DNA of 13,796 nucleotides from Candidatus Heimdallarchaeota archaeon. GTDB lineage: Archaea; Asgardarchaeota; Heimdallarchaeia; Heimdallarchaeales; Heimdallarchaeaceae. Both the position numbers and the translations under genes were made by a program. Below, piece by piece: positions 9,183 through 9,932 of the stretch. The first letter of the stretch is position 1. Each line of letters starts with the position of its first letter. The stretch spans positions 1-13,796 of the forward strand of contig JAEOSZ010000053.1 in NCBI GenBank assembly GCA_016840095.1, given 5' to 3'. Below the pieces are notes generated by a model. The model saw only the letters and a program-made list of their open reading frames with translations. It ran no database searches and was not told where the DNA came from.

Positions 9183-9932
9183 ATGCATGTTAATGTAGTT
9201 ACTTATGTGAGGGTCAGTACTGCAGACCAAGAATCTGGCAGAGATACTCAGTTCTCTGTTATCGATAAGAAAATCAATACTGTTGGATATAGACACGTTC
9301 TAGAAACATTCGTTGATGAAGATGTTTCAGGAGATAGTCATGTTCAAGAAAGACCTGGTTTTAAGCAAATGATGGAATTTATCCAAATGCATAATAAGCA
9401 GAGACCAGAGGACCCAGTCAAAGAAGTGTGGGTACAAACACGTGATAGGATTTCAAGAGAAGTCGATATGTTGGGTTATGCTTCAGTTCTTTTACGAAGT
9501 CATGGAGTAGAAATCAGAGCAACTGAAGAATCAGACGAAATGCTTGTGACTAGAATATATGATCTTCTTGGAGAAGAAGAGCTCAAAAAATACAGACAAA
9601 AAAGAATGTATGGAATTAAGAGAAGAATTCAAGATGAGAAAATTATGTCACGACCACCCTTGGGGTACAAGATTGAAAATGGTAAACTTCAAATTGATGA
9701 AGAAATGCGACCTAAACTAGTAGAGATTTTCCAGATGTTTGAAGACAATGTAACAATGTCTACTATCAGCAACAAATATGATATCCCAAGAAGTACTTTA
9801 GCTTATTTGAGAAAGAATCCTATCTATAGAACTGGTGAATACTTCTGGAAAGGGAGAGTTGTTTATCAAGTTGAACCAATACTAAAAGAAGGAGATATAG
9901 AAATTAGGGATGAAGACGACTTCTATAGTTAA
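9183..9932 (+). CDS. Serine recombinase: resolvase catalytic domain plus compact recombinase DNA-binding domain
   Basis: YVR10VS12T nucleophile motif, VSG, RPGF and D88RISR92, followed by RPPLGY...IF..F...NPIY..G...EPIL, which are hallmarks of the recombinase domain of large serine recombinases. Confidence 0.9.
   Translation: MHVNVVTYVRVSTADQESGRDTQFSVIDKKINTVGYRHVLETFVDEDVSGDSHVQERPGFKQMMEFIQMHNKQRPEDPVKEVWVQTRDRISREVDMLGYASVLLRSHGVEIRATEESDEMLVTRIYDLLGEEELKKYRQKRMYGIKRRIQDEKIMSRPPLGYKIENGKLQIDEEMRPKLVEIFQMFEDNVTMSTISNKYDIPRSTLAYLRKNPIYRTGEYFWKGRVVYQVEPILKEGDIEIRDEDDFYS

Follow-up and report, generated by a model that had tools for sequence, protein, structure and literature searches.

A compact serine recombinase gene and its protein

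The window, a stretch of 13,796 nucleotides from a Candidatus Heimdallarchaeota archaeon (contig JAEOSZ010000053.1), carries on its forward strand a real and intact open reading frame (9183-9932) encoding a compact serine recombinase of 249 amino acids, referred to here as paralog A. A catalytic resolvase-type domain with a long E helix occupies residues 3-150 (9189-9632). As anticipated in a preliminary description of this DNA, PF00239 matched residues 5-152 (E 2e-15), and the catalytic residues R10, S12, D88, R89 and R92 all lie at the positions named there. They are invariant or nearly so in an alignment of homologs. PF00239 and the R-x-S and D-R-x-x-R motifs place A in the serine recombinase superfamily, and catalysis is predicted from these features.

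The second domain (residues 157-236, 9651-9890, pLDDT 70-91) contains the PPLGY (from 158), NPIY (212) and EPIL (231) motifs previously noticed and an HTH core at about residues 192-211. PF07508 had been expected here, but a Pfam profile search of A gave no such match and returned a weak HTH_psq match at 195-212. The AlphaFold model of A (mean pLDDT 75) consists of the catalytic domain, the long helix and a compact alpha/beta domain. The modeled catalytic domain matched the N-terminal domain of TP901-1 integrase (Z 13.5, rmsd 2.4, 108 residues aligned). Folded alone, the C-terminal domain found its best matches in the recombinase domains of the SPbeta, Bxb1 and LI integrases (Z 7.8-8.1, rmsd 2.8-3.9, 83-93 aligned), while matches to resolvase HTHs were weaker (Sin Z 5.4, Hin Z 3.8). 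Judged by these models, the C-terminal domain is a recombinase domain of the large serine recombinase (LSR) type trimmed nearly to its HTH core, which is a known part of that domain (PMC3783163). A ends 13 residues past it, as do all close homologs, in an acidic tail (9891-9929) that the alignment confines to clade A and the island-borne clade M1. Neither a zinc ribbon nor a coiled coil follows. The lack of a zinc ribbon, already proposed, is borne out by a cysteine count of zero and by a Pfam search without any zinc-ribbon family match at E<=1.

A TATA-like box (9153-9158) lies 25-30 nt before the ATG of A, the modal position in its own genome, and a T-rich tract (9933-9957, forward strand) 3' of the stop codon, with similar tracts in orthologs, is a plausible archaeal terminator. 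The promoter and terminator earlier ascribed to the gene are thus present as sequences, and their function is predicted.

We compared A with the known classes of recombinases. LSRs (Bxb1, TP901-1, SPbeta, LI/A118, phiC31) share its order of catalytic domain, E helix and recombinase domain, and both domains of A find their best structural matches there. In contrast to LSRs, A is half as long (249 aa vs >400 aa), lacks zinc ribbon and coiled coil, has a recombinase domain trimmed below the PF07508 threshold and is a chromosomal core gene for which no att duplication or RDF was found. The small resolvases and invertases (Tn3/gamma-delta TnpR, Sin, Hin) belong to the size class of A and have a catalytic domain at the N-terminus and an HTH core at the C-terminus; a candidate site lies over the promoter of A, as it does in that class. 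However, the HTH of A forms part of a larger alpha/beta domain of the LSR type (about 80 aa), and A is a host-fixed gene. IS607 TnpA also has a serine catalytic domain and occurs in archaea, but A has no N-terminal HTH (its catalytic domain starts at residue 5) and no adjacent tnpB, and it scores 18 against a cut-off of 110 with the IS607 TnpA model NF033518. The view that no known architecture fits A is incomplete, since its DNA-binding domain, an LSR domain trimmed close to a resolvase HTH, makes it an intermediate. Proteins with catalytic plus recombinase domains and no zinc ribbon are, moreover, common in databases: one distant Thermoplasmatota-type family alone comprises 2844 clusters of 270-300 aa, and proteins P0050-P0056 are built likewise.

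We found no description of the A/B family in the literature. A PDB sequence search gave no match, viral contigs contained no relative and a plasmid collection yielded only three Paraclostridium matches of 28-30% identity.

Inheritance of A and B and their mobile relatives

A is present in 28 of 31 Heimdallarchaeaceae genomes (including one gene with an internal stop and two cut by contig ends), at about 249 aa and mostly in synteny. Two of the three genomes lacking it are only 72-76% complete, and a search of 400 Asgard genomes found no A outside the family. Close homologs carry the name Heimdallarchaeota or Heimdallarchaeaceae, nearly all measure 249 aa (65-98% identity) and include orthologs in two closed Heimdallarchaeum genomes (UJG41118, UJG43916). 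The genome of the window holds a second copy, paralog B, which is 46% identical to A and occurs in 25 of the 31 family genomes. In the closed chromosomes of H. aukensis and H. endolithica the PF00239 genes are exactly A and B. A is therefore not single-copy, since B is equally fixed; 'stand-alone' is true of the A locus and fails for the genome. A and B form separate clades with largely agreeing subgroups. Both are under purifying selection (dN/dS 0.03-0.09 for A, 0.02-0.04 for B), and all full-length A orthologs aligned, from five genera, keep every catalytic residue.

In three of five genera of the family, A and a larE-larC-larB-like cluster point away from each other, and in four of five the genes that follow A come from a set that recurs; a search of the assembly of the window found no lar genes. 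Here, a subtilase/aldehyde dehydrogenase/aminotransferase/amidohydrolase block lies upstream of A. Two paralogous secreted subtilases (1623-2765 and 7882-9051) bracket the other genes of this block, which is not adjacent to A in most relatives. Positions 11606-13792 of the window encode a protein of 728 aa that combines TPR repeats with an ArsR-like winged HTH and is a regulator of a kind typical of Heimdall archaea. B comes after a gene for a small GTPase and two genes of unknown function, with an eIF2B-like gene facing it. Genes are frequently gained and lost beside A in relatives, both flanks being turnover hot spots. The absence of a mobile-element context holds within the window, but A flanks turn over and relatives of 55-70% identity sit on islands.

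Could A be an invertase that serves the phase variation or programmed rearrangement of nearby genes? There are precedents for domesticated Hin-like enzymes (PMC8987985), non-directional action is expected in the absence of a zinc ribbon, and surface proteins and proteases are frequent near A. However, there are no long inverted repeats within 8900-10300, the orientation of A relative to lar and downstream genes is constant across genera, and the upstream flanks of A and B were never swapped in 40 loci. We consider this role very unlikely.

The relatives on islands fall into two clades, M1 (about 70% identity) and M2 (about 55%), found in a few genomes and on small islands (L072, L073, L074, L078, L089), sometimes together in one island. 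Their neighbors are type I restriction-modification, Toprim, primase-like and small DNA-binding genes. This arrangement recalls CcrA/CcrB of SCCmec, a serine recombinase pair with the same kind of gene company. Unlike A and B, which are unlinked core genes, Ccr proteins measure about 450-550 aa and carry a zinc ribbon (weak match, E 1e-6). No att duplications were found around the M1/M2 islands, and an AU test (p 0.42) is compatible with M1 nested in A as well as with M1 as its sister.

Several features of the islands deserve mention in their own right. An M1-bearing island region contains four near-identical, CRISPR-like 41-nt repeats spaced by 76-78 nt (L074:16860-17130). Right where an M2 island module ends (L078, also L077), the 3' end of an ABC-transporter gene has received a peptidase gene, which is bracketed by a duplicate of about 195 bp of the transporter gene's tail (L078:5872-6065 and 7365-7559). 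Another island encodes a family member fused C-terminally to a PF10137 (TIR-like nucleotide-binding) domain (P0048, L079:4219-5268).

The similarity of these island copies and the two possible branching orders of A and M1, together with distant LSRs of 450-570 aa among the weak matches, could point to A as the remnant of a truncated large serine integrase or of an integrated element. Uniform length, low dN/dS, synteny and presence in 28/31 genomes speak against this. Close homologs are about 249 aa rather than 450-550 aa, no longer or fused close homolog turned up (the fusion search being a weak test), and the chromosomal position of A is fixed over five genera instead of marking the edge of a variable element. 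No attL/attR edge, tRNA or repeats were found at A. The remnant reading is refuted as far as sequence allows, and we regard it as extremely improbable.

The nearest outgroup of A consists of Thermoplasmatota proteins of 42-44% identity, which are single-copy in 4/4 and 2/3 genomes of two small orders. A more distant homolog lies between a restriction-modification system and parA, the setting of a plasmid resolvase. The A/B lineage likely originated from a resolvase of a mobile element. A and B were very probably fixed in the ancestor of the Heimdallarchaeaceae as host-owned genes. This agrees with the early proposal of a domesticated, compact and vertically inherited recombinase, given family-wide presence, synteny and the dN/dS of A.

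A shared upstream element and dispersed dyads

A composite element common to A and B lies at about 9140-9182 on the forward strand, immediately before the gene. It consists of a GTATTAC box (9140-9146), the TATA-like box and an ACCTT half-site (9168-9172). A orthologs keep all three and often an inverted AAGGT partner, so that the short symmetric site foreseen near A has a conserved counterpart in this dyad element. A 14-bp palindrome at 9144-9157 that had been singled out is not conserved in A orthologs, where conservation falls on the GTATTAC box and on the half-site ACCTT. In the genome of the window the dyad at A is degenerate. Upstream of B, a GTATTAC box is followed by two ACCTT-N5/6-AAGGT dyads, and the resulting three-arm pattern is nearly unique to B within each genome. 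Neither GTATTAC nor ACCTT is a general promoter element. AAGGT is enriched at the Shine-Dalgarno position, and the last arm at B may therefore double as a ribosome-binding site. A further box, CCGACAAAA (9093-9101, forward strand), stands upstream of many A orthologs and is not specific, with 37 copies in the genome.

When the 3.4-Mb genome was scored with a matrix built solely from A orthologs, the B site came out as one of the three highest-ranking distinct places, and a matrix from other genera put it first, although these rank tests are partly circular as the anchoring motif was picked by eye. In the reverse test a B-trained model ranked the A site only 137th, a weak result that we attribute to the degenerate dyad in the window. 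An independent check came from ten non-Heimdall homologs: ahead of their start codons there are 14 half-sites where 4.5 would be expected (Poisson p 2e-4, with related rows counted), and three of the homologs have full dyads. The motif thus travels with the gene across phyla, mostly in Thermoplasmatota, which is most simply explained if it is the family's own binding site. On these sequence comparisons, the ACCTT/AAGGT dyad is probably the site of this recombinase family.

For B, the dyads may alternatively form an RNA hairpin. By eye, however, the arms at the dispersed locus described below drift without compensation, and at A transcription is expected to start downstream of the half-site. 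An Rfam search at A, B and the dispersed locus gave no match.

What kind of site might this be? In the dyads, the arms are 3-8 bp away from the center and the spacers vary (1-5 and 5-6 nt). The recombinase domain of LI integrase reads the major groove at positions 9-11 (PMC3783163). Because the arm spacing differs from these positions, the element may serve as an operator or in an accessory role, and crossover may take place elsewhere. A comparison with res sites showed that the conserved dyad overlaps the promoter and that its spacing is not canonical for a multi-subsite res. The geometry of the A/B dyads suits an operator better than a crossover site.

Such a geometry would also be expected if A and B had been repurposed as DNA-binding proteins, acting mainly as repressors or chromosome organizers of a small dyad regulon with catalysis secondary. 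In both genes the element extends over the TATA box and the region of the start, further dyads are found close to the starts of other genes, and in two genera (L083/G004 and L084/G003) a syntenic B has lost its catalytic motifs and retains its DNA-binding domain and upstream dyad. Yet the active site of A is complete in every full-length ortholog aligned across the five genera, the genera with a dead B carry an extra paralog clade (catalytically intact in L064, without its N-terminal part in L065), and a pure self-repressor would not stay at a dN/dS of 0.03. We therefore consider this reading unlikely.

Dyads are also found away from A and B, with several related sites per genome. In the genome of the window, 9 of 18 are intergenic against 11% expected. 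A related dyad pattern gave 46 matches in the family against 15 for the control and 6 against 16 outside it, counts that come from a pattern derived after the data had been seen and from orthologous sites that are not independent. The strict dyad pattern is missing from both closed genomes. Elsewhere in the genome of the window (contig C57, L163:6554-6740) we observed a conserved non-coding locus of about 170 bp that contains several pairs of inverted arms, is flanked by variable genes to the left and right and has no fixed gene downstream. It could be a res-like site, an operator cluster or a small RNA, and was not found whole outside its own genus.

Integrons and Xer-exploiting elements support comparable traffic of gene cassettes, and A and B might be a host-kept integrase/excisionase that lets accessory genes come and go at dispersed ACCTT/AAGGT sites. 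The family-specific pattern, the excess of intergenic dyads, the variable genes around the 170-bp locus, the rapid turnover beside A and the islands with M1 and M2, where the M2 module ends in a related motif, are all in line with this. On the other hand, no hybrid site was found at the far end of genes inserted at the 170-bp locus, and no att duplication around the islands; in the window, the junctions of the inserted block ahead of A lack a site. Moreover, the closed genomes lack the strict pattern, the islands bring their own recombinases, and the pattern is post hoc with non-independent sites. Taken together, a role in gene traffic appears rather unlikely, if worth keeping in mind.

Loss of XerA and a possible role in chromosome dimer resolution

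We wondered which housekeeping process could account for the conservation of A. Some archaea lack xerA and have no known substitute (PMC2958812). Tyrosine recombinases of any kind were detected in 13 of 31 Heimdallarchaeaceae genomes versus 48 of 52 other genomes of the class, and the XerA model NF040815 scored over its cut-off in 1/31 versus 29/52. The sole XerA-scoring gene of the family (L090:9585-10673, G022) is a lone insertion between conserved genes and falls outside the XerA clades, so that no XerA ortholog was found in the 31 genomes. A PF00589 search of the closed, circular H. aukensis chromosome (PMC8813620) gave no match, and the match in H. endolithica sits in a mobile-looking block. 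As a separate observation, another family of the class (f7; e.g. L104, G081) has neither XerA over cut-off nor A/B, and 6 of its 12 genomes encode a conserved tyrosine recombinase of 350-360 aa.

Third-codon GC skew of H. aukensis, from about a third of the chromosome sampled, has a two-replichore pattern that switches at 430-451 kb and near 1.99 Mb (permutation p<0.002). A lies at 349 kb, about 90 kb or 10-12 degrees from the terminus, a proximity with a chance probability of 6-13%; B lies at 84 kb, about 355 kb away. H. endolithica shows no clean skew. The switch near 1.99 Mb lies at one of three cdc6 genes and suggests that H. aukensis (G005) has a single origin there.

Among Thermoplasmatota, 128 of 301 sampled genomes have a serine recombinase without a zinc ribbon, often as tandem pairs. 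XerA exceeded the cut-off in 1/40 genomes with such an enzyme and in 16/40 without, an anticorrelation that is confounded by lineage, concerns a distant family and weakens to 15/40 versus 27/40 at E<=1e-45. The closest Thermoplasmatota homologs of A coexist with XerA-scoring proteins in four of five genomes. Tandem pairs are also seen in small Thermoplasmatota genomes (G699:C1:1359626-1361145, G684, G513, G465, G503); four of these five are without XerA over cut-off.

Judged by the defining features of these families, A lies outside the large integrases, small resolvases, IS607 and Xer, and it would work most like a resolvase. It is most likely a domesticated, self-regulated resolvase, predicted to be active and non-directional, with a housekeeping role. 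Tn3-family resolvases repress their own promoter at res. Similarly, A would use its trimmed recombinase domain to attach as a dimer to ACCTT/AAGGT dyads and would repress its own promoter. Without zinc ribbon and coiled coil there would be no attP x attB directionality, and A should then recombine identical sites. Dimers of the circular chromosome could be resolved by such a module of a gene plus an adjacent site, as with XerS/difSL. B would serve as a partner or accessory DNA-binding subunit, a role it may have in view of the two genera in which its catalytic motifs are lost and its DNA-binding domain and site are kept. A complex prediction for A and B scored 0.23, was run without controls and is not used as evidence.

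Given the strong conservation of A, dimer resolution is the housekeeping job that explains it best, and we estimate a probability of about 0.35 that A resolves chromosome dimers in place of XerA. The wider proposition, that A with or without B does so at ACCTT/AAGGT sites in Heimdallarchaeaceae and that Thermoplasmatota lineages replaced XerA independently, is put forward tentatively and is doubtful as a whole. The Xer/dif systems (XerCD, XerS/difSL, XerH, archaeal XerA) would share with A this role, two conserved paralogs, a gene beside a dyad and vertical inheritance as core genes; in one closed genome A lies near the terminus estimated from skew, and it would fill the XerA gap. However, there is no dif consensus, and A, being a serine and not a tyrosine enzyme (no PF00589), is at most a functional analogue. 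Displacement of Xer and gene-linked sites have precedents (PMC5357621, PMC8987985).

We count in favor of dimer resolution the frequency of A (28/31) and B (25/31), their low dN/dS, the absence of XerA, the position of A near the H. aukensis terminus, the XerA anticorrelation and tandem pairs in Thermoplasmatota and the homolog beside parA. Against it we count that loss of XerA and gain of A/B amount to one event on one branch, that the closest outgroup homologs coexist with XerA-scoring proteins, that B is dead in two genera and far from the terminus, that the dyad is degenerate and operator-like, and that archaea without xerA and without a known substitute exist. Dimer resolution leaves no trace in a genome sequence. 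The probability left after the readings discussed here belongs to roles we have not listed.

Between small resolvases and large integrases, A is an intermediate that occurs in nature, which makes it informative on the evolution of directionality, and it is a compact candidate tool. According to a review of archaeal recombinases, serine recombinases of archaea have been seen in transposons and never investigated in full (PMC8371274), and a 2022 review knows of no evidence for chromosome segregation mediated by serine resolvases (PMC8987985). With closed circular genomes, no XerA, two fixed enzymes and a candidate site, the proposal is testable with two small proteins and 45 bp of DNA. All known chromosome dimer resolution relies on tyrosine recombinases, and if our reading is true, the Heimdallarchaeaceae would possess the first serine-based chromosome resolution system.
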